A stretch of DNA of 64,000 bases from a virus. Its lineage: Duplodnaviria; Caudoviricetes. Under the pieces are notes generated by a model. The model did no database searches. It was given only the letters and a program-made list of their open reading frames with translations, and was not told the DNA's origin. The stretch is from IMG/VR virus record IMGVR_UViG_3300020576_006124, positions 133,240 through 197,239 of that record. One strand, 5' to 3'. Positions 27,893-54,894 of this stretch are shown here, piece after piece; positions within the stretch are counted from its first letter, which is position 1; every line of letters begins with the position of its first letter. Both the position numbers and the translations under genes were made by a program.

Positions 27893-30800
27893 ATGGATCT
27901 TTTTGGAGCGCCTAGAGATAACAAAAGCCTGCTCGAAGAGTATATGGAGCAGGCGGAGGCTGGGATTTTTGACGGCAATGAAGAAACTCCCAGAGGATTT
28001 TTTAGGAAAAGAATATCCCTTACTATGGGGGCTGATCCCACTAGATACCATGGTATAATTAGCTCAAGTGGTGGGGAGAGTTATCTAAATACCTCTAAAA
28101 AATCCATTATACAAGCCTTCAACTCAGAAATAAACCAGGCAAGAAATATTAATCTGAATGAGTATGCACAGATATTCTTCAACTTAGCACATCAAAAAGG
28201 ATTGATAGAACATCAAATAGGGGTTTCTTCTGAGAGATATAGAACTAGGGTCTCTCCTATGGTAAAGACTAGTTTTAATACGGCACAAGAACTAGTAGAG
28301 GGGACCCGGGGAGGGAGATTTCCTAAAAGTCCCATGGATTTAATAACTAGGGGGATCTCAAAATATAAAAAACCCACCAGTTATCTTGCTGTATTGCGAC
28401 AGCCTTTAGATGTTCAAGAGGGGTCGGGAGAGAAGTTTATGAGATTCTTAAACTCTTTCGAAAGTGCTGTTGTTAAGAATGACGCCGATGGAGATGAGAA
28501 TGATGTTCTCAAGTTAAAAGCTTTTATTCATCATAAAATGCAGATCTTAGGAGAATTGATGAGTAAGAACCCTGTTCTGGGGGATCCGAGATTTACTAAA
28601 AGATATCAAGCCTCTTTCGAGGATCTTTTCCCGATGGATTCTACTGAGTGGTGGAAAGATCCCTCTATACAAAAAGATTTTCTTAGAGACCTTAAGACAT
28701 ATGCCTCCAACAAATCTTTTAAATCTAATGTAGATTCCTTAAGAGCAAGAATAAGAGTCTCAAATGTAGGAAAGATCGTATCTGCAACTAACTCGATTGA
28801 ACAGTGGCAGATGATGCAAATGTCGGAGCAATACCCTAATATGCATCCCAGGGATATAATGAATCTTATTGCTGGTTCTGGGCATTGGACTAATAAAGAG
28901 AACGACCCGGGGATGGGAGCTGGTAAGAAGTATTTAGGGGAAGTTCAGAACTATTTAGAAGAATATGCTTTAAAATCAAGTAACAAGAATCTAGTCAGAA
29001 CAAAGAGTAATATCTTAAATCCAGATAGCTTTGTTATTAGAGGAATGAATTGGAGAGAGAGGCAAGATTTTAGAGAGGGAAACTTTACCGGAGCACAAAG
29101 AGCAGCGGTGGCTAAAGAGCTTCAAGAAGGGCCAAGTAGAAAAATTAGGGTTAAAGAAATACTAAGAAACTCCACCCCCGTCATAACTAAGCCTAGACCT
29201 ACTAAGAAGTTTTTAGCACAAGTTAGTGACTTAAATTTGCTAAGAGATGAAGTTGAGGAAGGAACTTTTTGGGATAGGTATAAATATTATAAGAAAGAGA
29301 TAGCAACTAGGACTAAGTGGGAAGGGGATTTAGATTCTTATAATGCTTTTTTCGGGGTTCACGTTTTTCCTGCTGATGAAGAGAATCCACCGGTTTTAAG
29401 TGGTCAAAGCTTAGATAAAAAGCTTCTTCCTTGGAGATCTGGATCGGATCGCACAGTAGCGGCGAGAAGTTTGTTGAAGAATCTAGGTATTGATTATACC
29501 GAAGTGGCTGTAAGTGGGGATCACGCTGTCTGGGCTGAGGAGCAAGGGATAGAGCCTGTAGGCTATATCCTTAGTAGAAGCATGAGAATAGTACAACAGG
29601 CTGAGGAGGGAGGTATAAAATCGGAGCTGGTAAAAGGACTCCCTTTAATGGGCCAGCTAGAGAACAGGACAGTGTTAAATGAGACTCTTCTCTCTGGTGC
29701 TACAAAAATGCTACATCCAATGTATCAAGTGGAGCAGGGTAAGCTGGTCCAACACATAGACCCCATAGACCAGCTTGCTCACATATTAGAGGGGAATTTA
29801 ATACAGCCAGGAGCAAATGGAGATCGTGCGATTAAAAATGCTCGTATGTTTGGAGAAGTTCCAAAGGAGACTGTAAATTTCTTAAAATCAAGGCTTAGAT
29901 CCTTAGACAGTGACGTTATGGTATCTTTGAGAAACAACGGGGTTGACCCCGTTGTGCTGCAATCTTTCCACGAAAGGTTTCTAAAGTTATCTCAAGGGTC
30001 TCATCCTAAGGGAATGATGGATAATCTACTCTCAGAGTTCCAAATTCTAAGGGATACTACGTTCCATGCCGGGAAGTACCTAGAAATTAAAGATCAAATA
30101 AGAGAATTTCTAGATGAGTATGGGTCTAATGTGAGGGCTGAGTACTCTTTTGTAGGAAAGGGGGGGCTAAAAGGACAATATATTGCCAAAGTATCCGATC
30201 AAAATCTAGACTCTTTAGGAAGAGTAGCTTGGCTAGTGCAGAATACTGGTGGTAAGATGGGGTTCACCCAGATGGAAGATCTGGTTCAGGCGTTCAATGT
30301 CGTCTCTGGCCATGCCCTTATGGGAACTAAGCCTAGGGACTTTTTTAAGGGAGGTAAAGTTACTTTTGGCAGACCAGGATTTCTGGATGCACATCCAAAC
30401 AGGGTAAACCAGCTACAGAGCCAAATGCTGGACTCCATACATGTGCAACAGAATATGGTGATGGTTAATATGAGTTTTGATTCTGTTCGGGATCTGTATA
30501 AAAGAACTTCTAGGCTAGATCTGCCTGAGTTTGCAGAGAAGAACCCGGGAGAATCTATTGCAATTATGTCCAAATATGGGCGTGACCAATTTAGAGGAGC
30601 TAAAGATCAATTTCACATGCTCCCTGGAGTTCAAGATCCTTCTGGGACTGATTTGGGTGTTCTATATAACTCAAATGGCTTGGATGTTGTACCTGTAATG
30701 GGGGCAAACACCCACCTAGAGAAGTTAATGGCTGAGGGAAAAATTACATTTTATAATGGAGACAGAATAACTTCCACTAACGTTGATAGAATTCTAGGGA

Positions 30801-31540
30801 GTGACGGCACCCACTATGGCTTAGCAATTACTTCTGGGGAGTCTATGTCTAAAAATACCCTGACAGCGTGGTGGCTGCAAGCGCTTAAGAGTTATGGCCA
30901 CGAAGTTCCAGGATTAAAAGATTATTCACCGGAAAGCCTTAGTGATTTTGCTAAATCTCTAGATACTCCTGAAAAGTGGAAAGATTTTGTGGACAACCAT
31001 GTTAGTAAGCTGGCTGTAGATCTTGATATAGATGGTCAAAAAGCTAAAGGCTTAAAGCTGGGACATCACGAGGCAGGTCTATGGGTTCCAGGAGGGCCCC
31101 CCGGGAGAACCTTTAATCCGATTATTCGAGGCACCTCTTCCAACGTAGCAGATGCAACCGTTTTCACAGCAGCTCAGGAATTAATGCCGAATGTCTCTAC
31201 AAGGGATATACAAAAAACCATGAGTGAGGCGTTAGATATGTCTGTGAATGCCTCTGGGAAAACTAGTGCAATGGGCACAGCTCTGGACGACATTGGGGAT
31301 TACCTTGCTGCTTCTACTGAAAAAGGGGGATTTATTTTCCCCAAATTTAATTCTATTTCTTATCCTAGCACAGCTCAATTAATAGACAAAGATACTGGAG
31401 CAAAACTGGCTTCTGTAGAACTGGGGGCAGGAGAAGTCCCTCTTAAGAATAAAAAACTACTTAAAGCAATGAGATCTGCGGCGGAGGCTGCAACAGAAGC
31501 TATGGCGAACTTCCACTTAGAATTTCTCAGGAGAAGATAA
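27893..31540 (+). CDS. Putative single-chain two-barrel RNA polymerase A (probable virion RNAP), 1215 aa
   Basis: VLRQP (R169)...LN-x9-DADGD (D197/199/201); C-terminal GKITFYNGDR (K950/R958)...DGTHYGLAITSGESMSK; colinear with 52663-54894. Confidence 0.75.
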   Translation: MDLFGAPRDNKSLLEEYMEQAEAGIFDGNEETPRGFFRKRISLTMGADPTRYHGIISSSGGESYLNTSKKSIIQAFNSEINQARNINLNEYAQIFFNLAHQKGLIEHQIGVSSERYRTRVSPMVKTSFNTAQELVEGTRGGRFPKSPMDLITRGISKYKKPTSYLAVLRQPLDVQEGSGEKFMRFLNSFESAVVKNDADGDENDVLKLKAFIHHKMQILGELMSKNPVLGDPRFTKRYQASFEDLFPMDSTEWWKDPSIQKDFLRDLKTYASNKSFKSNVDSLRARIRVSNVGKIVSATNSIEQWQMMQMSEQYPNMHPRDIMNLIAGSGHWTNKENDPGMGAGKKYLGEVQNYLEEYALKSSNKNLVRTKSNILNPDSFVIRGMNWRERQDFREGNFTGAQRAAVAKELQEGPSRKIRVKEILRNSTPVITKPRPTKKFLAQVSDLNLLRDEVEEGTFWDRYKYYKKEIATRTKWEGDLDSYNAFFGVHVFPADEENPPVLSGQSLDKKLLPWRSGSDRTVAARSLLKNLGIDYTEVAVSGDHAVWAEEQGIEPVGYILSRSMRIVQQAEEGGIKSELVKGLPLMGQLENRTVLNETLLSGATKMLHPMYQVEQGKLVQHIDPIDQLAHILEGNLIQPGANGDRAIKNARMFGEVPKETVNFLKSRLRSLDSDVMVSLRNNGVDPVVLQSFHERFLKLSQGSHPKGMMDNLLSEFQILRDTTFHAGKYLEIKDQIREFLDEYGSNVRAEYSFVGKGGLKGQYIAKVSDQNLDSLGRVAWLVQNTGGKMGFTQMEDLVQAFNVVSGHALMGTKPRDFFKGGKVTFGRPGFLDAHPNRVNQLQSQMLDSIHVQQNMVMVNMSFDSVRDLYKRTSRLDLPEFAEKNPGESIAIMSKYGRDQFRGAKDQFHMLPGVQDPSGTDLGVLYNSNGLDVVPVMGANTHLEKLMAEGKITFYNGDRITSTNVDRILGSDGTHYGLAITSGESMSKNTLTAWWLQALKSYGHEVPGLKDYSPESLSDFAKSLDTPEKWKDFVDNHVSKLAVDLDIDGQKAKGLKLGHHEAGLWVPGGPPGRTFNPIIRGTSSNVADATVFTAAQELMPNVSTRDIQKTMSEALDMSVNASGKTSAMGTALDDIGDYLAASTEKGGFIFPKFNSISYPSTAQLIDKDTGAKLASVELGAGEVPLKNKKLLKAMRSAAEAATEAMANFHLEFLRRR

Positions 31541-32163
31541 TGGATTTCTCCAGACTTGTTCAGAGCCAGTTATATGCTGTTGGAATAATAGATAATTCTC
31601 CCAAACTCACCCCCACAGGCTGGTTGAAAGAGGGGACTTCAAGAACAGCCTCTAGTATAGAAGAAGAGGATTTTGGGGATTCTTCCCCTGTAGCTAAAAA
31701 TAGTATGTCACCCGATAGAAACTTAGATCATATTTATCCTGATTTTAAGGATAAAGCTTTAGCAGTCTTAAAGTTGATGGAGAGTTGGTGTAAGACACAC
31801 CAACCCAATCTATCTCCGATGTTTGGAGAGGGATTCAGGTCAACCGCCAGACAGCAGGAATTATATGCTCAAGGCAGAACTAAGCCTGGTAATAAAGTTA
31901 CCAATGCTGATGGCATAAGGAATAAAAGTAAACACCAAAGTGGTCTGGCTATGGACCTTTGGGTAAAGAAAGATGGGAAGATTGTTTGGGATGCTCCTAA
32001 AGCTTTCTGGGACTATTATGGCCATGCTTGTAGAGCCAACGGCCTGGAATGGGGAGGAGACTGGAAGGGCCTGGTAGATCAACCACACACGCAATGGCCC
32101 TCAGCAGATAAAGCAACTTATGAAAAAGCCAAGGTATGGCTAAAAAGTAAAGGGCTTTTATAA
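31540..32163 (+). CDS. Endolysin, M15 family (L-Ala-D-Glu peptidase-like)
   Basis: EGFRSTARQQELYAQGRTKPG, SKHQSGLAMD, LEWGGDW, DQPH. Confidence 0.9.
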   Translation: MDFSRLVQSQLYAVGIIDNSPKLTPTGWLKEGTSRTASSIEEEDFGDSSPVAKNSMSPDRNLDHIYPDFKDKALAVLKLMESWCKTHQPNLSPMFGEGFRSTARQQELYAQGRTKPGNKVTNADGIRNKSKHQSGLAMDLWVKKDGKIVWDAPKAFWDYYGHACRANGLEWGGDWKGLVDQPHTQWPSADKATYEKAKVWLKSKGLL

Positions 32164-32166
32164 CGG

Positions 32167-32199
32167 AGAAAGGGGGGAAATTTCCCCCCTTCTTTTTTT
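32167..32199 (+). terminator. Intrinsic terminator between convergent genes
   Basis: G-run/AAATTT/C-run hairpin followed by TTCTTTTTTT. Confidence 0.8.
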
Positions 32200-32271
32200 C
32201 AACTATGAGTTACTAAAAAACCTTTAGTATTAATATAGACGAGCACTTCTTTTCAAAGGTTTCAATTTTTT

Positions 32272-32949
32272 TTAACAAATTGGGCCGTTTCCTGTAATCC
32301 CAACCGATTTACCACAAATTTTACAAGTTAAATAAAATGTTTTGCCTGGAGGTATGTATAACCCAAGTAGCCCAAAATCATGTCTGCACCCTGTTGGGGC
32401 TAAGTTGTAATCCTGTTTCAATATCCGATGTAGTCGAAAGAGTTCGGAATCTTCTATAATCCAAGGAGTGGGGGAGATCTTATCAGGCGGAAATGGGGTG
32501 GTGGTTAGGAGGCCGCCCTTAGGGGTCTTTTTTTCTTTTAGGATCTGTTTAAGGAGATCCAGTACGGGAAAACCCTCAAACACTCCTTTCTCTACCATTA
32601 AAGAGAAAAGAGAATCCCAATCTACAAAAGGTCTGCTGCTGATAGACGGATCTGTTTTTAACGGAATATTAAACCCTTTATCGTCTATGTAAAGGTCTGC
32701 AAGGGGTTTGGGGGAAGTGGACCAACTACTTTGTTCTGGGTTGATTTGAGAACTCCAGATAGAAATATTATTTTCCTCAAACCACTTTTCTGCTTCTTGT
32801 AAGTATTTACCTGATCTGCAGGTAAAAAGAAGAAGCTTAATTCCTAGAACATTGAATAGTTTAAGATAGGGTACAGCCCCTATGTCTTTTCCTATTTTAG
32901 GGAAATCATGTGAAACCACAGTTCCATCAAAGTCTAAACTAATAATCAT
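32272..32949 (-). CDS. HAD-superfamily hydrolase (BT0820-like) with C-terminal Cys motif
   Basis: ISLDFDGTVV, LFTCR, SPKPLADLYIDDK. Confidence 0.85.
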   Translation of the reverse strand: MIISLDFDGTVVSHDFPKIGKDIGAVPYLKLFNVLGIKLLLFTCRSGKYLQEAEKWFEENNISIWSSQINPEQSSWSTSPKPLADLYIDDKGFNIPLKTDPSISSRPFVDWDSLFSLMVEKGVFEGFPVLDLLKQILKEKKTPKGGLLTTTPFPPDKISPTPWIIEDSELFRLHRILKQDYNLAPTGCRHDFGLLGLYIPPGKTFYLTCKICGKSVGITGNGPIC

Positions 32950-33139
32950 CTCTCTTATTGTACCTATCTTCTAGAAGACTAGTAGCAAGAAATATACCTA
33001 TTAAAGATATAATAACCAAAAAAATGTTTTTTTCTTCCAAAGAGAGATATAAGTCAAAAATCAAAAAAAGCCTAAGAATATGAATTACGGCTCTAGGCAG
33101 GGCGCAGGAAAATTCAAAGAGAATTTTGTTCTTCTTCAC
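32939..33139 (-). CDS. Small membrane protein
   Basis: 66 aa; hydrophobic segments. Confidence 0.45.
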   Translation of the reverse strand: MKKNKILFEFSCALPRAVIHILRLFLIFDLYLSLEEKNIFLVIISLIGIFLATSLLEDRYNKRDDY

Positions 33140-33731
33140 TTTTTTTGATTTTATCTATGTAGGAGGCAAGCTCAGATTTAGAGTCTCTTTCTTCCATCAA
33201 CCTGATATGAGACTTTTTATACTCTTCATAGAGAGAAGTAAGATCTTTTAAGTATTTTAAAGTTAGTTCTATACTACCAATCTCTAATACAGCCTGATCA
33301 GTACTTTTTCCTAAAGACTCAAGGGATTCAATGGAAGGAATCGTATCTCTTTTATTAGATAATTTACCTTTGGCATCCAAAGTCTTAAGTTTTAAGGACT
33401 TTGCCATTTCTTGCAAACTCTTAGTTTCGGCTGATTCGATTTTTAGTAAAACTCTTTCGAGAAAGTCCAGTCTCTTCTCAGCTAAATCCTGCCATTCAAT
33501 ATCTTTTTTTACTTCTTCTAGTATTTGGGGTATAAGGTTTTTTAACTGGTTGTGTCTATCTATTTGAGAAGAAGAGATCCACTGCACAAGGTGGGTACTC
33601 TTTGTGGCTATGTCTTCTAAAAGAGCCTCTACAGCCTCAGTGTTTAGATTTAAATCTACTTCGGAAAGAAAAAGTTCAGATAGACAGGCCCTTTCTTGGG
33701 TTAAAAATCTTTCTATTGAGGGATAAAACAT
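33114..33731 (-). CDS. Coiled-coil hypothetical protein
   Basis: E/K/L-rich; preceded by the late motif. Confidence 0.6.
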   Translation of the reverse strand: MFYPSIERFLTQERACLSELFLSEVDLNLNTEAVEALLEDIATKSTHLVQWISSSQIDRHNQLKNLIPQILEEVKKDIEWQDLAEKRLDFLERVLLKIESAETKSLQEMAKSLKLKTLDAKGKLSNKRDTIPSIESLESLGKSTDQAVLEIGSIELTLKYLKDLTSLYEEYKKSHIRLMEERDSKSELASYIDKIKKSEEEQNSL

Positions 33732-33738
33732 CCTAAAA

Positions 33739-33763
33739 TAAATAGAGGTAAAGACTCTATTTA
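33739..33763. promoter_or_regulatory. Divergent pair of late promoter motifs
   Basis: TAAATAGAGGT-AAA-GACTCTATTTA between divergent ORFs. Confidence 0.7.
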
Positions 33764-33779
33764 TAAAGAACTAATTGCT

Positions 33780-34127
33780 ATGATTAAAGTACCTGCCCAC
33801 TTAGCCACATTAACCCCCACTTCGGGGACTAGTGTAATCACTGGTTACATCTGTTTTAACGATGGTTCAACTAGAGTTGTCTCTTCTTTAAGCATTACTG
33901 GGAGCGGCACTTTAGGTGATTTTCTAGTAGGAGCTACTATTCTAACAGAGAATGAACTAGATAAGGTTCTGTTCTTTTACATTACAGAGGTTGCCGGGGC
34001 TGATTTTTACTGCGGGAGCCAAGGTATCTCTGGAGTGTACTCAGAAGACGCCCAGGTAGGCAATCTCTTGATACAAGTGGGTGTATATAACACTGATCCT
34101 TATAGATTAGGAGCTATTTTTAGTTAA
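33780..34127 (+). CDS. Hypothetical virion-associated protein
   Basis: 115 aa; first gene of the late-motif-driven tailspike cluster. Confidence 0.55.
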   Translation: MIKVPAHLATLTPTSGTSVITGYICFNDGSTRVVSSLSITGSGTLGDFLVGATILTENELDKVLFFYITEVAGADFYCGSQGISGVYSEDAQVGNLLIQVGVYNTDPYRLGAIFS

Positions 34128-35347
34128 TGGATTTAGTTGGCATTTCTTCATTATCAAAGGCAAATTCTACAGCAGTTAACCTAGTTTCAGAATATCCTGT
34201 AACTAACCCAGAGGTTATTGCTGCGTCTGTTGCAGCCATGAAAACTAGCAGAACTAGTATTATTGTGCTGGGGGACTCTAACACGAATCCAGGCTACGGA
34301 TGTGACTCGAAATATCAGCACAACTGGGCTTTTCTATTCACCCGTGGGATGCAAGAATTATTAAAAAGGCCTGGAGGTTTTGGGTTTGCGCCTTTCTGTG
34401 TGATGTCTGGTTCTGCGGGGGCTACTGCCTGGACAAGTAGGCTAGGAACCGCTATTTCTTCGGACAACGTGACACTGGTAGGGACTGCGGCCTATAATGG
34501 TCAATGGATTGCGGCTCCTGGTATGTCTGTCATGCGTGGCACAGCTGGAACTGCTACCAGCATCACCCAAACGATTGGAGAGGCCATTGGCACATCAAAC
34601 CAGATCACGATTCTGGGATTAAATCAGGGAGGAGGTACTATTGGGATTACAGTCAATGGGCCAGGCACTACCGACTCGGTAGCTTCTACTTCTGGTGCTG
34701 AGACTGTATTCACTAAGAGTCTTACGTTTACCGTTGGTACTGGTACTTCAGTCACGATTGCATTCTCCTCAGGATCGACTTGGACCTCTGGGTGTATCTA
34801 TGACCGGTCTGATCTGGACGGGCCGACCCTATTCAACTTTGCACATCATGGAAGAAGATTAGTGGATGATGGTACCAGTGCAACAGGGTTTTATAGAGCA
34901 AACAACTCTAATGGAATCACCAACAATATAGCCACTTATTCAAGCAGAACTCCTGCCATGGTGATTGTTCCTACATGGCAAAATGATGCGGCAAGTTCAT
35001 CTGTTGACCTGGTCACTTTCGAGGCTGGGATGCAAGCGATTGTTACTAGAGCAATTGCTGTGGGGACCAGGGTAGTATTTATAAACTCATTAAAGCCCCA
35101 TGTGTTAGATAACAATCCTGCCAGCTACTCTACCCAAAGAAGAATAGTGGCCTCTCTTGCGGCTGCTAATCCTACTGTGGTTGCTGTTATAGATGAAGCT
35201 TTTGCTTTTGATTTTTGGGGGGATTTCCAGAACGCGCTTGTTGCTGGAGGTGTGGTGAACCTAAGGTTTGACGCATCACACTACAACCAAACTTTCCATC
35301 ATCTTAGGGCTAGTAGCCTTCTAAAGATCTTCAAAAAATACATATAA
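34127..35347 (+). CDS. SGNH/GDSL-hydrolase-domain virion protein
   Basis: VLGDSNT, WQND, DASHYN. Confidence 0.75.
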   Translation: MDLVGISSLSKANSTAVNLVSEYPVTNPEVIAASVAAMKTSRTSIIVLGDSNTNPGYGCDSKYQHNWAFLFTRGMQELLKRPGGFGFAPFCVMSGSAGATAWTSRLGTAISSDNVTLVGTAAYNGQWIAAPGMSVMRGTAGTATSITQTIGEAIGTSNQITILGLNQGGGTIGITVNGPGTTDSVASTSGAETVFTKSLTFTVGTGTSVTIAFSSGSTWTSGCIYDRSDLDGPTLFNFAHHGRRLVDDGTSATGFYRANNSNGITNNIATYSSRTPAMVIVPTWQNDAASSSVDLVTFEAGMQAIVTRAIAVGTRVVFINSLKPHVLDNNPASYSTQRRIVASLAAANPTVVAVIDEAFAFDFWGDFQNALVAGGVVNLRFDASHYNQTFHHLRASSLLKIFKKYI

Positions 35348-35352
35348 AAAAA

Positions 35353-36900
35353 ATGGACTTAGTTGGTATTCCGGAATCGGTCAGTCTTCTGAACTCAGAA
35401 GAAATTATCTCTTCTTTAAAATCTACTCAAAATGGGTGGGGGTCTTTTGTTCCTGTTTGCTATAGCCCAAGTGGGGCTATTCCTATGTCCAGAAGAAGTA
35501 CTTCAACGAGGTCTAATGCGTCTAGTATACCTCAACCATTTGTCGTAGACACTGAGGGGTTTATACGACTTCTTTATATAAATTGTTACAACAACACTGG
35601 GTCTAGTCGGGCTGAAGACCCCATGTCATCAGCCCTAAGCATTCAGGATTATGTAGTCTTCCCTAATGGTGAAGAGCACCCAGTAACATTCACTCAGAGT
35701 GGGGGTTACATAGGCACTGCCCCCACTTTAGGGTTCCTACTCTCAGATCCCATAAGGTGCAGTGCAGACTTTACAAGAAACCAGGAAATTAGAATTAGAT
35801 CGAATAAGTCTGTGGCTACTGCTGGCTCCAATATGTTCCCAGAAAACTGGGTTGCATGTGATCCTACTAGTACTGGTGCCTCTATGCAATGGGATGCCAC
35901 TAACGTACTTGCGGATGTATCCACAGTTGCGTCTAGATCCACTGCAATTACAAATGACATAAATAGTAGGTTAGCGTTTGTTCCCATTATTTTAGGGAAG
36001 CCTAAAGTCTCAGTAAAGGTAATAGGAGTAATAGGACACTCTTTCTTTAACAGGTTCGGTCCAGTTTATGGGTCTAGTCCGGCGTATACTGAGTGGGGAA
36101 AGTCGGGGATAATAGGGAGAGCCCAAGCCCTCAAATCAGCCTGCGTAGTGAATGTTTGTGCTGCATCTGAATCATATGCTACCCTCGCAGCAAATGGATG
36201 TGTGGCCCTTAAAACTATTCGTCTACCATTATTGATGGGCTGTGATAGAATTTTGCTGGCTCCACCAGTAAACGACGTTCTTAGTTCTAGAACATCCACG
36301 CAGATGATGAACGATATAGCCTCTGTCCGAGCTTTTATCACTGCTGCTACGGGAATAACAGATTTCTGGTACTCTACTGTTCCCCCACTAGGCTCAACAT
36401 CAGATAATGGGGTCCTTGCTTCTAACTTCACTGTGGGGGCTAACGAATCTAATAGAACGGCTGTAAATACTGCTATTAGATCTCTGGCTGGATCTAAGCT
36501 AATAGATATTGACGCAGATATCATTACACAGGGGGGTACTGGAGGAAAGTATCCAGACGCTACTGTTTTTACGACTAAAGCAACTACAGCCGCCAACGCC
36601 AATCTATTAACTTGGACAGAAGCAGCCCCTAATGGGTATGGGTACTACTACCATATGGCCGCCAAGGCAAAAACAGGGACTGCTGGGAATATAGGCCAGG
36701 CAAGGCTTGTTAGTGGATCTAGGGATAATGGGTCTAATGTTGTTCGTGTAGATTTAAATTCCGGTTTATCTTTTGCTACTACTATTGGAGACACGTTCGA
36801 CATCTACAAACTGTGGACGACGGACGGCACCCACCCAGGACACTTGCAGATCGACCGGTGGGCGGCACTGATGACCGTCAGCGGAGGGCTTTTCGGCTAA
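35353..36900 (+). CDS. SGNH-hydrolase-domain tailspike-like protein
   Basis: VIGHSF, PVND, TDGTHP. Confidence 0.7.
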   Translation: MDLVGIPESVSLLNSEEIISSLKSTQNGWGSFVPVCYSPSGAIPMSRRSTSTRSNASSIPQPFVVDTEGFIRLLYINCYNNTGSSRAEDPMSSALSIQDYVVFPNGEEHPVTFTQSGGYIGTAPTLGFLLSDPIRCSADFTRNQEIRIRSNKSVATAGSNMFPENWVACDPTSTGASMQWDATNVLADVSTVASRSTAITNDINSRLAFVPIILGKPKVSVKVIGVIGHSFFNRFGPVYGSSPAYTEWGKSGIIGRAQALKSACVVNVCAASESYATLAANGCVALKTIRLPLLMGCDRILLAPPVNDVLSSRTSTQMMNDIASVRAFITAATGITDFWYSTVPPLGSTSDNGVLASNFTVGANESNRTAVNTAIRSLAGSKLIDIDADIITQGGTGGKYPDATVFTTKATTAANANLLTWTEAAPNGYGYYYHMAAKAKTGTAGNIGQARLVSGSRDNGSNVVRVDLNSGLSFATTIGDTFDIYKLWTTDGTHPGHLQIDRWAALMTVSGGLFG

Positions 36901-36903
36901 AAG

Positions 36904-37842: not shown

Positions 37843-37897
37843 CTGTAAGTTAAGCTCTATTAAACTTGAAAGTATAGTAATAAAAAAGTTACTTTAA

Positions 37898-45039: not shown

Positions 45040-45227
45040 AACTCACTGAAGCTCTCGCAGGCCTAGTCACCATCATGTTTATGTGGGTTGTATACCTCTA
45101 CATGACTGACTCTCCCTGGATCACACCTGTATTGTTCTTAGCTACCCTTTCCGTATTCACTTACGGGTACATGAAGTACGAGAAATGGTGTGAGCCTGCT
45201 GAAAAGGAGGAACCCAAGCAGGAATGA
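45036..45227 (+). CDS. Small two-TM protein
   Basis: Two hydrophobic segments. Confidence 0.6.
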   Translation: MKLTEALAGLVTIMFMWVVYLYMTDSPWITPVLFLATLSVFTYGYMKYEKWCEPAEKEEPKQE

Positions 45228-45769: not shown

Positions 45770-45771
45770 TT

Positions 45772-46023
45772 ATGGATAACAAAACTTACGGAATCATTGG
45801 CGGAGCAGCCGCCCTAGCCGCAGGCATCGGAGTCGCTGTTTACCGACGTTTCAAGAGGAAGAAGGTGGAGATCATCCAACCTCAAGTTCCTCAGTCAATC
45901 ATCGTGGCAGTGTCCAAGTCCAAGCCTGAAGAGATCAAAGTTGAAGCTGAGACTCCAACCCAGGCTCAGGAAACTCTTCCCACACAGGACGAGAAGAAGC
46001 CTGAAGAGACAGTCACCGCTTAA
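45772..46023 (+). CDS. Membrane-anchored hypothetical protein
   Basis: N-terminal TM segment plus acidic tail. Confidence 0.65.
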   Translation: MDNKTYGIIGGAAALAAGIGVAVYRRFKRKKVEIIQPQVPQSIIVAVSKSKPEEIKVEAETPTQAQETLPTQDEKKPEETVTA

Positions 46024-46279
46024 ACCCAAAACTAGGACGATTCTAGTGTTACTCGGGCTGGGCGGATCTCGGTACTGTACGTACCCTCGATCCGTTACAG
46101 ATCTTCGTACACTAGTTTCGTCCTTGTCTCGTTCTATTCTGGCCTTTCTTGGGCTAGGATCCTGATTTGACTGGAGTACATCAAAACTCTTGTCGTGTTC
46201 CCTCGTGTCATAGTACACTTGGGTTCCTTCTCTGTGTTCAGCAGATATTCTGAACAAATCTCACGTTAGGAAAACAATT

Positions 46280-46777
46280 ATGAGCAAAACAGCTAAAGAA
46301 GCAGCAAACGTCGTCAATGCCTTGACCCCTCAGATCGCTGAGTTCAAGAATACCTACATCACGTACTACGACCGTGGTATCGCAGACAAGCCTCGCAGGC
46401 TTCTGGTTGCACAGGGATCAGTTGAGTCTCTAAAGGAGATCAAGAAGTTCCGTGACAACAAGGATCAGGGCTGGGTCTATGCAGTACCTGGAGACCTTCT
46501 CACCGATGAGATTCGGGCTGTACTCATCTACAACCCCACATACGAGAAGGCCAACCGAAACCCTGAAGGGTCTACGTTCCACATGATGGTGAAGAATACC
46601 AGTGTACTGGTATGGATTCCCAGGATCGTGACTGAAAAGTCGCACCTGCTCCCCAACCATGTGCATTTCTTTGTACGTGACCCGAAGGAGCTTGAAGCTC
46701 TTCCATCACTGGAAGATGCTCTTGGATGCAACACCAGTTTCGTTGCAACCCAGGCCGAAGAGTACGTCCTGGCCTAA
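46280..46777 (+). CDS. Early hypothetical protein
   Basis: RBS AGGA; 165 aa. Confidence 0.7.
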   Translation: MSKTAKEAANVVNALTPQIAEFKNTYITYYDRGIADKPRRLLVAQGSVESLKEIKKFRDNKDQGWVYAVPGDLLTDEIRAVLIYNPTYEKANRNPEGSTFHMMVKNTSVLVWIPRIVTEKSHLLPNHVHFFVRDPKELEALPSLEDALGCNTSFVATQAEEYVLA

Positions 46778-46851
46778 GAGTCTCAGTTCACAATATGGGG
46801 TGTTGCTTGTGACAGCACCCCCACAACCATTAAGAGATCTCAAGAGAAACC

Positions 46852-47070
46852 ATGGAAGTCGCAAAGACTATATTCAAAATATTGTTCTGGGTAGTTGTCC
46901 TTGCATTGTTCATCATCCTAGTCGCATGCGGCTTCGATGTAAAGAAGATGAAAGGCATGTTCTCAGACAAGTGGAAGGATGGCTCCAGGCCCAGCACTGG
47001 GCAAATCGTAGACCAAGCAGCAGAGCAGGCTGAAGGGATGGGTAAAACCAAACAAACAGCAGATGCCTGA
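46852..47070 (+). CDS. Small membrane protein
   Basis: One TM segment. Confidence 0.6.
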   Translation: MEVAKTIFKILFWVVVLALFIILVACGFDVKKMKGMFSDKWKDGSRPSTGQIVDQAAEQAEGMGKTKQTADA

Positions 47071-47072
47071 AA

Positions 47073-47099
47073 GATGGGGAGCTAACGCTCCCCACTTTG
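47073..47099 (+). terminator. Putative terminator
   Basis: TGGGGAGC-TAAC-GCTCCCCA-CTTTG. Confidence 0.55.
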
Positions 47100-47789
47100 C
47101 TCACGACCTAACTACTTCCCTGTTAGTCTAAAGAGCACTAGTGAAACTAGAAACTTTAGTTACTAACGAGAGATAACATATACTACTGTAGGGTCACTTA
47201 CTGTCCTTTATAACTTTAGTTTTACCTTTAAGGATAAGTGATTACTGAATGATGTCCCATTATTCTTTTTATCAGTAGTACATATATTAGTTATCTCTTC
47301 TATGTATATATAATAGAAATTATTTTTCTTTACCTATATATACTAAATGTAGATACCCTTTTTCATTCATGACCTAACTACTTTTAAAGTGGTCTAAAAC
47401 ATGTTTGAACCTAATCATTAGGTGACCTAATGTCTTGTCTACTAGTTTTTCTCAAAACTTACCCAAAAATCACTGAAAAAAGCATTTTTTCTCTAGGGCT
47501 TTTTTTGTTTTTTGACCAAAATTTGACACTTTTATGTAGACATTTGTCTCAAAGCGTCTACTAGTTTTTATTAATATAACAGTTAGATTTAAGTGTAATG
47601 TGAAAAAATTCTACATTCTTTCAGTTACCTACAGATACCCTTATACATACATTTAGTGAGTATATAGGGGAATACTTTTTGAACTATACATATATACCTT
47701 TAAGTTCAAATTGAACCTACTTACTTAACCTTCAGTGAACGTGTAAGAACAAGTTATTTATTCCCTCAGGTTCACTTAACACTTATAAC

Positions 47790-47874
47790 TGAATGTGTAG
47801 ATGAGTAACTGAATATGTAAATGAGTAAATAAATATGTAAATGTGTAGATGAGTAAATATGTAAGTGAGTAATT
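47790..47874. repeat. Degenerate tandem repeat (ARATRWGT-like 8-mers in ~20-nt units)
   Basis: GAATGTGTAGATGAGTAACT GAATATGTAAATGAGTAAAT ... in a ~1-kb AT-rich gap. Confidence 0.7.
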
Positions 47875-48047
47875 ACAGGGTAATAGTATCTATAAGATCT
47901 ATTGTATCTGGATTACCTTCTTATATATATATTTCTCTTATGCTCTAATATTTTTCAATACTCTCTGAGTAATGGTATATTATTTTTACTGTCATATAAA
48001 TGTTGTTTTAGGGTTATGCATAGTCTGAACCAAGGAACAACAGCTTT

Positions 48048-48284
48048 ATGCCCACTATTAAAACAACTTCTCTCAAAGAGATTTTCTGGAATACGGTAGC
48101 AGATGCATTAAACTGTAAAGTATATAAAATTCATGAGGATAAGGATTCAGCAGAACTTTACCACCCCTTATGGGGGTACACCACTATCTCCGGTAGGGTT
48201 GCTGAAAAGCTGTTAAATACTTCATTAGAAGGGCTAAAGGAGAAAATAGGACTGTCTAAAGATAATGACCCTCAATCAAGATAA
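48048..48284 (+). CDS. Hypothetical protein
   Basis: RBS AAGGA. Confidence 0.55.
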   Translation: MPTIKTTSLKEIFWNTVADALNCKVYKIHEDKDSAELYHPLWGYTTISGRVAEKLLNTSLEGLKEKIGLSKDNDPQSR

Positions 48285-48296
48285 ACTTATAAACAT

Positions 48297-48599
48297 ATGT
48301 ATAAACTAGCTAGACCTGATTCATTCCTAATTGATCTTTACGATCAAAATAATAACGTAGTATACTTTAGATTTTCTATTAACCCTTCAGGGTCCTCTAT
48401 GTTTAGAGTAGAGAAAACCCCACAGAACAAGTTAATAGCTACCAGCGAGAGGATTAGTCTTATTAACTTCTGTCTTTATCATATACGAGACTCTCAGTAC
48501 CCTAAAAAGCATATATACACTGACTATCAATCAGATGAAAAATTCTACGTTGACCTTACTAAACTTTTAAGGTTATTGAGAAGCACATGTACAAACTGA
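48297..48599 (+). CDS. Hypothetical protein
   Basis: 100-aa ORF. Confidence 0.55.
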   Translation: MYKLARPDSFLIDLYDQNNNVVYFRFSINPSGSSMFRVEKTPQNKLIATSERISLINFCLYHIRDSQYPKKHIYTDYQSDEKFYVDLTKLLRLLRSTCTN

Positions 48600-48913
48600 G
48601 TGATTCAAAAAAGATCTACGTAGCTCGTAGAGATTGTACCGCCAAACAGATCCATGGTACCTATTATCCAATAGGAGATATTTACCCAGTTGAGGTAATT
48701 CGCGAAAAACATAAGGGTAGTTACGATTTTCTCAAATTTAAAAACTCAGAAAGAGATATAGATATAGTTTATAACAGTGTGTATGAATTATCCCATATTT
48801 ATTACAAAAATACTAAGTACCTCTTTGAAGCAGAAAAACCTATAGCCTTTAAGATTTTAAACTTTGAAGTACTCTCCAGAATAGGTAAATATATTACCCT
48901 TAAAGAAACCTGA
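48587..48913 (+). CDS. Hypothetical protein
   Basis: 108-aa ORF. Confidence 0.55.
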   Translation: MYKLSDSKKIYVARRDCTAKQIHGTYYPIGDIYPVEVIREKHKGSYDFLKFKNSERDIDIVYNSVYELSHIYYKNTKYLFEAEKPIAFKILNFEVLSRIGKYITLKET

Positions 48914-49224
48914 TTTTGGGGGTTTTGGGGTTTCTCCCAAGAAGACCCCAAGGGCAATCTTCTAAGCCCTGTAAATAACCTTCAAGCACGAAAGTGTCTG
49001 AAAAGGAACGTATTCTCCCTAGAGGGAGGGACTAGTGACGTAACTAAATAAAACCGTCACAAAGAGAAGGTTTTTCATTTTGTTATTCCTATACATAGGG
49101 GATACTCAGCGGAGTAGATCTTTTAATCATTCCCGAGTGTTACTTTACACGGTAGTGTGACGATCATAGTCAGTAGTAATATTGGCTTCCATTAGCAATT
49201 TCCATACTTTGAAAGTTTTGGGAT

Positions 49225-49302
49225 CGCGGGGTAGGGAAGCCTGGTCAACCCACTAGCCTCATAAGCTAGAGATCAGAGGTTCAAATCCTCTCCCCGTCCC
49301 CA
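49225..49302 (+). tRNA. tRNA-Met(CAT), initiator-like
   Basis: CGCGGGG 5' end with C1 mismatch; CTAGC-CTCATAA-GCTAG; GGTTCAAAT; CCA. Confidence 0.85.
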
Positions 49303-49450
49303 GTGTTCAATCCCCAATCGAACTCACATTCACTAGGTAACTAGTGGATAGATTAATATTTCTAATGTTTTGGGATTGGTTCTTCCGAAAGGAAGTTCCA
49401 AACAGGAGTCCCTAAGGAGGCTGAGAAGCCTCCCCCATATTAGAGGAACA

Positions 49451-49921
49451 ATGATTACCCCTAACGATTTTTCTACTCTAAAAATAATCAGAGACGTTCT
49501 AGCCTTAGCTGAAGAAAATGAGGATCTAATTTATCCTATATTTCCTTGTTGGACTAACAGTCCTAAAGTAGCCATTTCTGCCCTTCTACGGAAAGTAAGA
49601 AACGGGTGTTCAGGCTTTCCTATCTCGGTTGGAGAGAAGCCCGTAATAAACGATTTAAGTTATCTAATATTTAATAAATCGTATGGTAAGATAATAAAGT
49701 ACAATCTTACCAAAAGATCTGGGAGGATTATTAGAAGTCCTCGTTCCTTTAGAAAAGCCGCCCAAAATTATAATGACTTCAGAGATATTTTCGAGAAAAA
49801 GTACGGCTATGAGTTAGCTCCCGCAGTGCAATACGTATTACAAAAAGGAGCTTACAAAAAACCATATGATTTTCCGAATTCACATACAGGATTTACCTAC
49901 TCAAAACTTAGTAAGAACTAA
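49451..49921 (+). CDS. Hypothetical protein
   Basis: GAGGA RBS before ATG 49451. Confidence 0.6.
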   Translation: MITPNDFSTLKIIRDVLALAEENEDLIYPIFPCWTNSPKVAISALLRKVRNGCSGFPISVGEKPVINDLSYLIFNKSYGKIIKYNLTKRSGRIIRSPRSFRKAAQNYNDFRDIFEKKYGYELAPAVQYVLQKGAYKKPYDFPNSHTGFTYSKLSKN

Positions 49922-49943
49922 GTATACCGGAACTGAGGAACAA

Positions 49944-50117
49944 ATGAAGAAGAAGCAGAATTCTCTGTACGCCTTCTTCAATAAAAAGTTCCCGGATCAA
50001 AAGAGAGTAGTTCTAATTCCAATTACACAGAAAAAGATTTACGATAACATAGGGAGATATAAAGGAACAGTCCCAGTATCCCAAGAGATACCTGAAGACT
50101 GGACTTTCTCCTATTGA
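49944..50117 (+). CDS. Small hypothetical protein
   Basis: GAGGA RBS before ATG 49944. Confidence 0.5.
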   Translation: MKKKQNSLYAFFNKKFPDQKRVVLIPITQKKIYDNIGRYKGTVPVSQEIPEDWTFSY

Positions 50118-50641
50118 GGAAGTTTTGGGTGTTAGGCTTGCCTAGTGTCCAAGGGGGGCATAGGGCCGGGAGTTGTCACAAGCAAACCCTAAGCCCGAAG
50201 CCCCAACCCCGAACCTAGAGGACCAAAGTGGGCTTCAAGAATTGGATTGTAAAGATACAGGATCTGAGTAATCAGTCCACTATGTACCAACTCAATCCAG
50301 GTCGAAAACCAAAAAATAACCACTAGACTCTCTAGGGCTTAAGGAACAACTAAATACTGAGTTGAGCCTTTGGAAACCAAGGATTGGCTTCTGACTAGTC
50401 GAGCTCAAGGATCGAACAGAAATGTTCGGTCTATGATTAAAAAGTTACAAATTTAACTAATTTGCAAAAATCAGCACTTTTTCGCTGTTTTGCAATAGGT
50501 AGTCTTTTGTCTGCTTTATTATACTCGTTTTCAGGCCTTACTTTTAGGAGCCTGTTTTGGGTGATTTCGATGCCTCACTGTCTCGTGATCACTACTTCGT
50601 GCGGTCTGGTTTCCTGTACTGCACCCTTCGGAGAAAACCCT

Positions 50642-50941
50642 ATGACTGACACCATCACTCAAGAACCTCAACCCAAGGAAAGCTTTGCAAAGAAGCTATC
50701 CAATGCTTTCACATCTTCCAATAATTGGAAGAAAGCCCTAGGCTACACAGCCTTGTTCGGAATTGGAGCAGGCGCAATCATTTCCGGATTCACCATCTCG
50801 ATGGCGTTGGCCTCTCAGCTTGCCACTGCTGGAATCATCGGAGTCCTTGTCGCTACTTACATTATCATCCAGGCCGGGGCCTATATGATTGGCTCAGCCA
50901 GTGTAGGTGCAAACAACATGACGGTACTCTCCACAGCATAA
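50642..50941 (+). CDS. Membrane protein
   Basis: GGAG RBS before ATG 50642; hydrophobic helices. Confidence 0.65.
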   Translation: MTDTITQEPQPKESFAKKLSNAFTSSNNWKKALGYTALFGIGAGAIISGFTISMALASQLATAGIIGVLVATYIIIQAGAYMIGSASVGANNMTVLSTA

Positions 50942-50948
50942 CCAGTTT

Positions 50949-51034
50949 GCTGGGGTGGCGTAATGGTAGCCGCAGGGGACTTAAAATCCCTTGCCTGTAA
51001 GGGCGTGAGGGTTCGAGTCCCTCTCCCAGCACCA
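50949..51034 (+). tRNA. tRNA-Leu(TAA)
   Basis: Cloverleaf with long variable arm; loop CTTAAAA; ACCA end. Confidence 0.92.
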
Positions 51035-51142
51035 TCAGCAAAACAGTATCCGAGGAATACTTTAGTCTAACAGACTTAAACCGATTGATATTGAGTAGAC
51101 TTAATTGTCTTCATCAGATCATAGGATCCTCACCAGTTTTTT

Positions 51143-51226
51143 GTGGGATTGGCGTAATGGTAGCCGCAATAGCTTTAGGTGCTATCGTCGAGAGACGTGA
51201 GAGTTCGAGTCTCTCATCCCACACCA
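51143..51226 (+). tRNA. tRNA-Leu(TAG)
   Basis: ATAGC-TTTAGGT-GCTAT; ACCA end. Confidence 0.92.
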
Positions 51227-51231
51227 CATTT

Positions 51232-51307
51232 GGGGTAGTAGCTTAGTGGTTAAAGCTCTCGGCTCATAACCGAGCGATCGTGAGTTCAACTCTCACCTTC
51301 CCCACCA
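51232..51307 (+). tRNA. tRNA(CAT), Ile2-like or elongator Met
   Basis: CTCGG-CTCATAA-CCGAG; ACCA end. Confidence 0.85.
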
Positions 51308-51314
51308 AGAATTC

Positions 51315-51390
51315 GAGACGGTAGCTCAGTCGGTAGAGCAACGCCCTTTTAAGGCGTGGGTCCTGGGTTCGAGCCCCAGTCGTCTCACCA
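51315..51390 (+). tRNA. tRNA-Lys(TTT)
   Basis: ACGCC-CTTTTAA-GGCGT; ACCA end. Confidence 0.93.
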
Positions 51391-51454
51391 AACAATTTTT
51401 CGACCTGACTGTATGAAAAGACATACAAACATTCGTCCAAGGAGATAAATTACC

Positions 51455-51850
51455 ATGATGCTATTCATTATTCTCATTTTGACTGCTGTGTCAGTCTACA
51501 TAGAACTACACGTGTTCAGCCACATGTTCTCGATTAGTATGTTTAGGGGGGAACTTTCGGACCCCCCTATGTCAACTGTAGTGCAACACAAGATTGCACT
51601 ATGGATCGCAAAAGTTTGGTGGGCAGCTTTGCTGTTCTCACTAATGCTTTCGCACTTCCTGGGCTACTTCTTTGGAGCCCATGGAGTAACCGCGCTCGTA
51701 GCGGCTATGCTAAGTACCGTTATTACTAACGTGTACTATCGAGTTTATCTAAATAGATGCTCTCGTCAGCCCAAGCCGTTTAACCTCGCAGAATTTCTTG
51801 TAGGTTGCCTTATTTGGCTACCCAAGAAGTTTTATGAGGCCTTTACCTAG
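51455..51850 (+). CDS. Multi-TM membrane protein
   Basis: RBS AAGGAG; 3-4 TM segments. Confidence 0.7.
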   Translation: MMLFIILILTAVSVYIELHVFSHMFSISMFRGELSDPPMSTVVQHKIALWIAKVWWAALLFSLMLSHFLGYFFGAHGVTALVAAMLSTVITNVYYRVYLNRCSRQPKPFNLAEFLVGCLIWLPKKFYEAFT

Positions 51851-51863
51851 GAGATAAAAAACC

Positions 51864-52604
51864 ATGTCTAAAAAGACTCTAAATCTACCAACCATCAATC
51901 ACCCCCACCTGCCCTCGCTTAATCTTAAGCCAGGAGCCCCAACCACCCCCTACTTCATGCACGCTCTGCGTGGATCAGTCCTCCCATTCGAGGATGGGGA
52001 GGAGCCCCGAGCCGGACTTGTTAAGTTCGGAATGGGTATCTTTCATTCGGGATTTGGCTCATTTGAGTACGATATCAATGAGCCTGTTCAACTTACCTTC
52101 AATCCTTTCGGTACTGAAGGTGTTGAAGCCATGGAAGATGCTCATATCGTACGAGTCATTCAAGGGCAAGTTTTCTACTATCGGTCCCCCAATCAGGAGA
52201 TCAAGAGTAGGCAGGCTCAAGCCTTGAGCTTCTCGTATATGGACAGCATCCATAATGTCACAGGGAACTCAGTTCCGAGTTGTCTTTATGACCCCTTGAC
52301 TTTCCTTCAGGAGGAGGAGTTGGAGGCACTGAAAGATGGTTACTACGACCCCCTACTAATCTCAGAGGAGTTTTACAAGCTGATCACCAATCCCAACCTT
52401 GTAGGTCGGGTTGCTGAAGATCAGGTTTGGAAGTGTGACCTTTCTATCGCACTCGTAATCCCATCCATTGGAGTGGGAAGAAGGGGAACTTCCTCCAGAT
52501 GTAGAATTGTCAGTGAAGTCTCCAATAAGGAGACTCTTACTCTCGGGCGAAACGGGGAGGTACTCACTCACCTGCAAAGCCAGATAGTGCGTAAAACCCT
52601 CTGA
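51864..52604 (+). CDS. Hypothetical protein upstream of RNAP B
   Basis: RBS AGGAG; 246 aa. Confidence 0.7.
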   Translation: MSKKTLNLPTINHPHLPSLNLKPGAPTTPYFMHALRGSVLPFEDGEEPRAGLVKFGMGIFHSGFGSFEYDINEPVQLTFNPFGTEGVEAMEDAHIVRVIQGQVFYYRSPNQEIKSRQAQALSFSYMDSIHNVTGNSVPSCLYDPLTFLQEEELEALKDGYYDPLLISEEFYKLITNPNLVGRVAEDQVWKCDLSIALVIPSIGVGRRGTSSRCRIVSEVSNKETLTLGRNGEVLTHLQSQIVRKTL

Positions 52605-52662
52605 TCCCTGATCAGACATAACTGGGGGGTATTTCTGTGCCCCCCACTGGACTCCTGTAAAT

Positions 52663-54894
52663 ATGAAAGAACTCGCAACAGAGGAGATATCTGGACTAGT
52701 TTTCCAGTATCCCGCAAATAAGTTCGGTATCAAGCCTGCCTGGATTCAAAGTCTCCTTAGAGGAGCCTACAGAGCAGCCATTAGACCTCTCCTTCAGGCT
52801 GGGATTGGGGACATAATTGACTTTCTTGGAGTAACCCTCCGAGGGACTCAATCTCCTGTCTTACTCTCAGCCGAACTAGAACCTGGAACCTACGGAATCG
52901 AAAGAGGATTCATAGTCCTTAACGAACAGTCAGCGCTCGCAAGAGCAGCAGATTGCGATGGTGACAGAGCAATCGTAGATGACAAGTACCCTGGGGTAGT
53001 TCTCAAGTATCCCCAGACTACTTTAAATCCACTGGTGTGGAAAAGAGTAGACTATGTCCCAAAACCCAGACTCTCTTCATTCACGGATAGAGACTTCACC
53101 GTCACTTCTTACAATGAGGAGTCTGACTTCAAGAAGGTCCATGTTCCTGTGGAGACTGGACTGCATACCTGGTCTCTGACTAATATGCAGTTCTATCAAC
53201 ATAAGGGACTACCCTCGATCAATAAGGTAATCAAGACCTTTAGTGACCCTATAAGGTATCAGGTGATCGAAGAGAACGGACTAAAGACCGTTCGTAAGGA
53301 TGGTAAGGATTTATCTGGTCAGAGCCTATTCGAAGAGAACGTATTAAATGTTACTCATCGAATCCCGCGCACTGAGTATATGTGTACTCTTTCTGGTAAC
53401 TCTCTTGGGTCTATGTCCGAGAAGGACGTAGACATCTTGATTGACTGGTTAACTGGGGGTTACATTGACAACGTATACCGAAGGTTCACCAGATTGGACT
53501 TCTCTTTTATCCCTAATGCAACCCCGGATTCTCCTTCGGTTGATATGGACAGAAAAGGGGTCCAGACTGTACAAGTTTCAGTACAGTCTTTGATCAAAAT
53601 GGGAGTTATTAAGATCCATGAGGTCCCAACAGACACAGGACACAACGGATATATCGTCCAACTTCTTGATCCTTCAGGAAAACCTGTAATCTTACAGGAA
53701 GCCAAGAGGAGCGATTTGGTTGCTGGATTCCAATTCGTAGTGTACCCCTCCTTCGGATTCGTAAATGGTTCCCCATCTTTACTATCCTTAACTAGACTTC
53801 TGAATGAGGCTATTGCTTCTATCAGAAATCTTTCCAGAGTCAAGAACAAGGAACACTTCTATTCCGATGGGTACAAATACCATCGGAATAGAATTATGAA
53901 GGCCATCCTGAAGACTGTCGGAATGTACGGAGATATGATCTCCTTACAGAACGGAAGACCTACGGACATAGCTAACTTAATCATCCGGAGTACAGTATGC
54001 TTCCGGTATGATCAGGAGCCTACTTACGAGCAGGCTCTCCAGCTACAACATGTAGTGGGTAAGAAGCTGTGTCTGTCTGGGGGTAAGAGTAAGAATCCTA
54101 GTATCCATAAGTATCTGCTTGCTAGAGAAAATGGAACTCCGATTACTTCTCATCCCGAAGCTCACTGTAGGAGAGCTGGGAACTTGAGAGCTCAACTACT
54201 CCAGTCTCAGCCTATAGGCATCTGTAAAGTTGCCGTACTAAGAACTGGCTCTAATGAGCAGGCTCTTTGTACCCGTCAAGGGAAACCGAAGCAAGTCCTA
54301 AGTCTCCAAAGCCTATCCCTAATCAGTCCAATTGAAACCGAGAAATGTACCGAACCTATTCAGTATAGATCCTGGTCAGGAAAGATTGTTAAAGGATTCC
54401 GAGGAGATCGAGACACATCTATCGAAGTAGGCAAAATCTTGGACTCAAATGGGTTCAAGTGCCAGCTTAGGGAGGTAGATTGGGAGGTAACCGATCAGAA
54501 TGGTGAAGCTATACACTTCATTATTCCGCCCCAGGTCATCCAGGACAAGGGGCTGGATCGGGTTTACTACCCCAAAGGAGAAGTTCAGACAGTACAGGTT
54601 ACCCTTATAGACGAGGAGACTGGGGAAGAACATACCCAATCTTACGAGGCTATTGTGTTTAACCATTTCTTCTTTAGAAGTGGGGACCCTGCTGAGAACA
54701 TTCCACCTGGACCTGTCACCCATCGAGTCACTGGATTTGACTCACTGTCTATTCGTGCCGTACTTGCCATGGAGAGAGGCGTTGATGATCTTGGAATTCC
54801 TTACCCAGAGGAGCAACTCCGAGTTCTAAAGAGAAATCTTAACAACATCTTCTCATTACTCCAGCAAGAAGGCATTTCGACCACAATTGAATAA
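52663..54894 (+). CDS. Putative single-chain two-barrel RNA polymerase B (probable non-virion RNAP), 743 aa
   Basis: [22 protein letters not shown] aligns without gaps to beta' [32 protein letters not shown] (K591/K599)...[13 protein letters not shown] matches beta GDKMAGRHGNK...DENGTPVDIVLNP. Confidence 0.8.
   Translation: [743 protein letters not shown]

Follow-up and report, generated by a model that had tools for sequence, protein, structure and literature searches.

The last 64 kb (positions 133240-197239; the window) of IMGVR_UViG_3300020576_006124, a 197,239-bp IMG/VR virus contig from an uncultured phage, encode two proteins, A and B, that are very probably both two-barrel RNA polymerases with the β′-type barrel first. 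The comparisons given here show that B, a compact one-chain protein, is homologous to the core of cellular RNA polymerase, and the best explanation as a whole, to which we assign a probability of roughly 0.7, is that A is its diverged and enlarged paralogue and that the two hold virion and non-virion roles. We infer that both are DNA-dependent RNA polymerases, and the phage probably transcribes its own genes. An earlier note on this DNA, made from its letters alone, had proposed such a pair on the basis of four colinear motifs. Its interpretation as a whole is partly supported: both open reading frames (ORFs) and all four motifs are present, together with every peptide that it quoted (Table 1). 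One-chain two-barrel phage polymerases are already known, as are pairs of virion and non-virion polymerases. What appear to be undescribed are the family of B, its barrel order, a second half like that of multisubunit β within a 743-residue chain, and the presence of fused, enlarged and split forms together.

A word-indexed search returned two close relatives of B (57% and 42% identity), and when 1.84 billion representatives were searched exhaustively with a profile, 97 related clusters at 50% identity came up, mostly of 750-1000 residues. Across a 79-sequence alignment eleven residues are invariant (D97, D99, D101, P117, E203, P362, G423, R504, G540, K591 and K629), and G100, K115, G166, K475, Q511, K599, R672, E678 and N679 are nearly so. 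No Pfam, PHROG or PDB member of this family was found, and Pfam searches of 49 of its sequences gave no recurrent family even at an E-value of 10. A and B themselves had no Pfam match and no significant PHROG match; PDB sequence searches with A, with B singly and with the alignment A2 returned noise only, and a set of 50,697 phage records had no match to A, B or P0013 by tblastn or megablast.

The AlphaFold2 model of B, built with the family alignment, shows a single compact body with a predicted local distance difference test score (pLDDT) of 90 and a predicted template modelling score of 0.90. Foldseek searches of the PDB with this model returned, as the best 50 matches, only chains labelled B (Rpb2) or C (β), each of them individually weak (E 3e-3 to 3e-2). 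In the ESM Atlas about 380 residues (B 307-727) aligned to clusters carrying PF00562, PF04565 and PF04560. The modelled fold thereby shows the C-terminal half of B to be β-like. The best match among predicted viral structures is a 798-residue protein of Acinetobacter phage vB_AbaM_ME3 (KU935715; UniProt A0A172Q0S6; Foldseek E 5.7e-5, 575 columns), followed by giant-virus β subunits and baculovirus polymerase subunits. The ME3 protein is similar to B in size, comes from a cultured 235-kb phage and is of unannotated function, yet it has no sequence similarity that the B profile detects; judging from the predicted structures, a one-chain RNA polymerase may have gone unrecognised in ME3.

The N-terminal half of B carries the Mg-binding DxDGD loop within residues ~57-130, followed by a helical region with the invariant E203 and a conserved K208. 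Around the loop the model has strands 57-69, 76-80 and 83-87, a helix at 88-92, the loop itself and a strand at 102-106; such a strand-strand-strand-helix-loop-strand element fits the β′ barrel pattern. The only sequence-level tie of the family to a solved protein is in this region as well. Thermus phage P23-45 encodes two single-subunit two-barrel RNA polymerases, one of the virion and fused to the tape measure (gp96), the other non-virion (gp64) (PMC10770324; PDB 8H2M/8H2N), a precedent that had been given correctly in the earlier note. When the B-family profile was run against PDB sequences, the top two matches were to gp96 at its vvN..a..DFDGD loop, at a non-significant E-value of about 1; in a six-frame translation of the P23-45 genome, its sole match was the same DFDGD loop, in the double-psi β-barrel (DPBB) termed DPBB-A (32 positions, E 9.2e-4). 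The fold matches of the second half and the likeness of the DxDGD loop to the gp96 catalytic loop both support the proposal that B is RNA polymerase-like, with two barrels in a single chain.

In the β-like half the conserved basic pair K591 and K599 takes the place proposed for it. A joint profile of A and B matched the PDB only non-significantly, and all such matches were to E. coli-type β; in one, likewise not significant, HMMER sets GK591...GnK599...iDLii of B on GDK1065...GNK1073...VDIVL of E. coli β. An equivalence of K591/K599 with E. coli β K1065/K1073, as claimed for the fourth motif, is consistent with the fold matches. In β, the residues equivalent to K591 and K599 contact substrate phosphates.

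A is far more divergent, and its relationship to B emerges only from the deep family profile. Pairwise BLASTP of A against B was not significant (best E 0.11), and hhalign of shallow two- and three-sequence profiles gave a probability of 0.15%. The profile built on 79 B-family sequences, by contrast, placed A second after B among the 637 ORFs of the genome (hmmsearch E 1.9e-4, 15.1 bits), so that the alignment of A with B anticipated in the earlier note failed in its pairwise and shallow forms and held in its deep one. The best of 1000 shuffles of A reached 3.5 bits. P0005, at 45% identity the sole homologue of A among 5.8 billion proteins, scored 8.7 bits against the same profile; it shares its JGI sample of origin with the closest B homologue, and its gene has the same synteny. 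HMMER set motif 1 of A on the profile segment vNeeeateraiDaDGD, VG..TN of A on vG..Tn, and motif 3 of A on hprRagkirsQll, and motif 1, the K-x-P element, the VG..TN element and motif 3 occur in the same order in A and in the profile. A second alignment, of A 720-1101 with B 397-709 (hhalign E 2.7e-4, probability 42%), spans motifs 3 and 4.

When A and P0005 were aligned de novo with 50 B-family members (52 sequences) by MAFFT, nine positions were invariant in all 52: D197, D199, D201, P227, E356, P609, R837, K950 and K987 in A numbering. A thus keeps 9 of the 11 B-family invariants in the same order. It also matches the family at K225, G293, K361, K813, Q844, G929, G956 and E983, and has R958 in place of K599; the arginine is shared by P0005. 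The model of A has pLDDT 80-89 around K950 and R958. We conclude from these alignments that A is a real, extremely divergent and enlarged member of the B superfamily, with catalytic residues under selection; the claims that A is polymerase-related and that the motifs of A and B are colinear beyond chance are borne out to this extent. Scans of IMG/VR and metagenomes returned no further relatives of A or B, and the alignment of A therefore stays at two sequences; the Atlas feature search with A found nothing.

The DxDGD loop lies at residues 97-101 of 743 in B and 197-201 of 1215 in A, and the basic pair at 591/599 and 950/958, respectively. The DxDGD barrel is thus N-terminal and the β-like half C-terminal in A, in B and across the B family. 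YonO, gp66 and QDE-1 have the β-type barrel first. In P23-45, QDE-1 and gp66 the connector runs from DPBB-B to DPBB-A, which puts the β-type barrel first (PMC10770324). The order of the P23-45 and YonO/QDE-1 single-subunit polymerases, which belong to clade 2 of PMC10770324, is found in neither A nor B. The literature searched contained no paper describing a β′-first one-chain form, an absence that is not proof.

Several characterised systems resemble A and B in part. P23-45 likewise has two very divergent one-chain two-barrel polymerases, one encoded within the structural module and the other in the midst of small early-type genes. It differs in barrel order and in the fusion of its virion polymerase to the tape measure, whereas A is free-standing and its phage contractile-tailed; the present genome also holds a third candidate (below). 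Moreover, gp64 and gp96 are absent from the fold matches of B, whose second half resembles multisubunit β instead. The jumbo phages phiKZ and AR9 encode multisubunit RNA polymerases of both the virion and the non-virion kind (PDB 7OGP, 7S00; PMC7598289, PMC7824862). They too are large and contractile-tailed, lack a sigma factor and encode more than one polymerase of their own (candidate polymerases in the present phage), but their enzymes consist of four or five polypeptides recognised by Pfam, and A and B each form one chain that no Pfam model matches. YonO of SPβ, gp66 of phage phi14:2 from the crAss-like group (a virion enzyme) and QDE-1 of the RNA-dependent RNA polymerase (RdRP) family PF05183 share the one-chain two-barrel form and a DxDxD loop; unlike them, neither A nor B matches PF05183. 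In addition, the YonO/RdRP group lacks parts of Rpb2 domains 3, 6 and 7 (PMC7824862), and the β-like half of B aligns with these domains over ~280-380 residues. The B profile had no match in the genomes of ME3, SPβ, AR9 or phiKZ.

The genome probably encodes more than two such enzymes. DxDGD occurs in 3 of its 637 ORFs (0.53 expected): A, B and C1, a protein encoded outside the window. C1 contains RYP...VYVHP...NFEGDADGD and adjoins C2, a β-like protein, with a 96-residue ORF between the two genes and AAA-like and VWA-like (DUF2201) genes after them. In the B-profile search C2 ranked third and C1 fifth, each aligned to the appropriate half of the profile. Hhalign of C2 with the second-barrel motif set of the B family gave E 1.8e-4 and a probability of 48%; the match of C1 to the B profile was not significant, and Pfam and PDB searches with both found nothing. 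The gene order, β′-like then β-like, is that of the halves of A and B, and by these sequence matches C1 and C2 form a probable split two-barrel polymerase. A prediction of the C1-C2 complex, with chains folded without alignments, was of low confidence and speaks neither for nor against binding. The count of two polymerases given in the earlier note stands as far as A and B are concerned and is probably an undercount, as it passed over the split pair at genome 42059-44767.

The timing of A is suggested by a motif. Only the word ACTCTATT(T/A) is enriched in intergenic regions upstream of genes (13 of 71, versus 1-3 in coding controls), and its intergenic copies all lie at most 70 nucleotides upstream of same-strand starts. 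Most copies fall within the structural region, where they precede the sheath gene, a capsid-region gene, the terminase gene and a 1248-residue gene, and we take this late motif to be a promoter. Between A and its divergent neighbour it forms a palindromic pair, AAATAGAGT-CAG-ACTCTATTT. The sister phage L001 has ATAGAGT-TTG-ACTCTATTTT 14 nucleotides before its A homologue, and no other intergenic DNA is as well conserved between the two phages as this pair (E 3e-5), so that the late motif noted upstream of A is real and kept. Among the polymerase candidates A alone carries ACTCTATTT upstream; there is no copy upstream of B or C1. A second divergent pair stands back to back at 33740-33762, between genes at 33114-33731 (-) and 33780-34127 (+).

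A G/C hairpin precedes the start codon of B; at the matching place in the sister contigs L002 and L003 stands another hairpin, unlike it in sequence. The B hairpin, after which there is no T-run, may act in termination, in attenuation or as a hairpin-type promoter element, and the CCACYKGACTYC element that follows it has no repeat copies. Among distant members of the B family no conserved partner gene was found, one neighbour being kept only in the sister phage. The window has seven transfer RNA (tRNA) genes (49225-63207, +; two Met, two Leu, and Lys, Ser and Thr), five of them within 3.5 kb upstream of B. From its gene neighbourhood B is a putative early gene.

Under the preferred reading, A and the structural genes would be expressed late from the ACTCTATT motif, and A would be packaged and then ejected to start transcription; B, the split third candidate or both would be made after infection and transcribe later classes of genes, those with the late motif included. 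To our knowledge, every characterised phage polymerase gene expressed with structural genes encodes a virion enzyme. A is expected to be packaged because polymerases expressed in this way are virion enzymes in N4, phiKZ/AR9, crAss-like phages (phi14:2) and P23-45 (PMC10770324, PMC7598289, PMC7824862), and by this analogy we regard packaging of A as an even bet. A bolder version, rather unlikely at present, is a host-independent programme of three polymerases from one undescribed lineage with reversed (β′-then-β) order, in which A would be injected and the fused B and the split C1 and C2 would act after infection.

Several points weigh against the preferred reading. The model of A is poor overall (pLDDT 55), with residues 97-197 below 50 and a poor N-terminal half, so that structure prediction and Foldseek, the check proposed in the earlier note, succeeded for B and not for A. 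A also lacks the conserved G540 and the C-terminal R672, E678 and N679 of the B family. In B itself the β′-type barrel of the N-terminal half, as judged from the model and the loop match, has weaker support than the β-like half. The third candidate leaves it ambiguous which enzyme has which role, the contig is estimated to be ~85% complete, and a search for an early promoter class among upstream words found none, only the late motif standing out. The late timing of A suits lysis or another late function as well as it suits packaging, and the M15 peptidase encoded downstream of it could be an endolysin.

These points lead to alternatives of differing weight. A and B may both be polymerases with A unpackaged, an enzyme made late and acting inside the cell (in late or anti-defence transcription, for instance), while infection is started by host RNA polymerase or by another enzyme from the virion (the split third candidate, for one). 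Gene location and the late motif indicate timing only, a probable endolysin-type peptidase with a non-virion late function directly follows A, another DxDGD candidate is at hand, and no PHROG or Pfam match links A to any virion protein; we nevertheless consider this somewhat unlikely, given the packaged enzymes of the phages cited above, the few templates that would remain for a late-only enzyme, and the lack of enrichment of sigma-70-like promoters in the 42-56 kb block. It is improbable that only B is an enzyme and A an inactive structural or ejection protein derived from, or merely resembling, the polymerase family. The similarity is weak at 15 bits, the N-terminal half did not model, four conserved positions are lost and ~470 extra residues have no assigned function, but the Asp triad, E356, R837, K950, R958 and K987 are all present both in A and in the 45%-identical P0005, which is not what one would expect of an inactive relic.

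Sequence does not reveal which template is copied or which product is made, and a weak language-model feature match (score 0.85, Atlas feature search) joins B to a PF05183 RdRP cluster. A and B could therefore be two-barrel enzymes of another kind: a QDE-1-like RNA-dependent RNA polymerase, a primase-like enzyme or a PolD-like DNA polymerase. We hold this to be quite improbable, as the genome has no PF05183 match and no other recognisable transcription enzyme: Rpb1 (PF00623), Rpb2 (PF00562), T7-type polymerase (PF00940) and sigma-70 region 2 had no match in it, a result that also favours independence from host-type enzymes. Least credible of all is a chance resemblance between unrelated proteins. 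The failed BLASTP and shallow-profile comparisons would fit it, and against it stand the shuffle control, the genome-wide rank of A, the independent match of P0005, the nine invariant residues in the same order and the confinement of DxDGD to the three candidates.

One-chain relatives of cellular RNA polymerase are rare and inform ideas on the origin of the two-subunit core. At 743 residues B would be among the smallest complete cores, and a self-contained polymerase of this size is attractive for structural and biotechnological work. A genome with fused minimal, enlarged and probable split forms makes fusion, fission and permutation directly testable; the three-polymerase programme, if true, would be a record, inside a single genome, of the RNA polymerase core undergoing fission or fusion. 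The phage may also be a new case of the virion and non-virion polymerase strategy in contractile-tailed phages.

Table 1 Polymerase candidates and associated features (window positions unless marked as genome positions).
Feature	Position	Strand	Remarks
ORF A, 1215 residues	27893..31540	+	Enlarged, very divergent single-chain two-barrel RNA polymerase candidate; proposed virion enzyme
A catalytic loop D197-A-D199-G-D201 (NDADGD)	28481..28495	+	Invariant in A, P0005 and 50 B-family members
A β-type basic pair K950 and R958	30740..30766	+	K950 invariant in 52/52 sequences; R958 aligned with B K599
Late motif palindromic pair	27858..27878		Between A and divergent neighbour; + copy ends 14 nucleotides before A ATG
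Peptidase_M15_4/VanY cell-wall hydrolase	31540..32163	+	Abuts A stop codon; arrangement kept in sister phage L001
ORF B, 743 residues	52663..54894	+	Probable single-chain two-barrel RNA polymerase, β′-type barrel then β-type half
B catalytic loop D97-C-D99-G-D101	52951..52965	+	D97, D99 and D101 invariant in 79/79 family members
B residues 308-690	53584..54732	+	β/Rpb2-like half including second barrel
B basic pair K591 and K599	54433..54459	+	K591 invariant; K599 in at least 90% of family
G/C hairpin (7-bp stem, 10-nucleotide loop; G6/C6)	52623..52646	+	Between stop codon of upstream gene and B ATG
Strong terminator-like hairpin with T-run	55905..55936	+	After the 316-residue gene that follows B
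C1, 369 residues	genome 42059-43168 (L010:2060-3169)		DxDGD protein
C2, 446 residues	genome 43427-44767 (L010:3428-4768)		β-like protein adjoining C1

The rest of the window falls into two parts. A minus-strand structural module at 1-27836 encodes terminase, portal, major capsid protein and tail sheath; because the tail sheath gene is present the phage is contractile-tailed, as had been claimed. Beside A are genes that act on the cell envelope, its neighbours encoding the M15 peptidase, which is probably co-transcribed with A, a GDSL-like esterase and a beta-helix protein. From ~43 kb to the end of the window, the plus strand has many small ORFs of no assigned function, the tRNA genes and a metallophosphoesterase gene. 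Within the small-ORF block are three gene-free stretches, at 47052-48047 (996 nucleotides), 48914-49369 (456 nucleotides) and 49922-50461 (540 nucleotides); only the second is partly accounted for by a tRNA, and they may be non-coding RNA or regulatory regions. In the structural module, two distinct genes at 5333-6706 (-) and 13679-14872 (-) match 'major head protein' PHROGs (phrog_9206 and phrog_3922), and one of them may encode a decoration protein or a second capsid-fold protein. The large terminase subunit (21219-24368, -; 1049 residues) has terminase matches at both ends and DnaC-like and recombinase-like matches inside, an arrangement of matches consistent with intein insertions.

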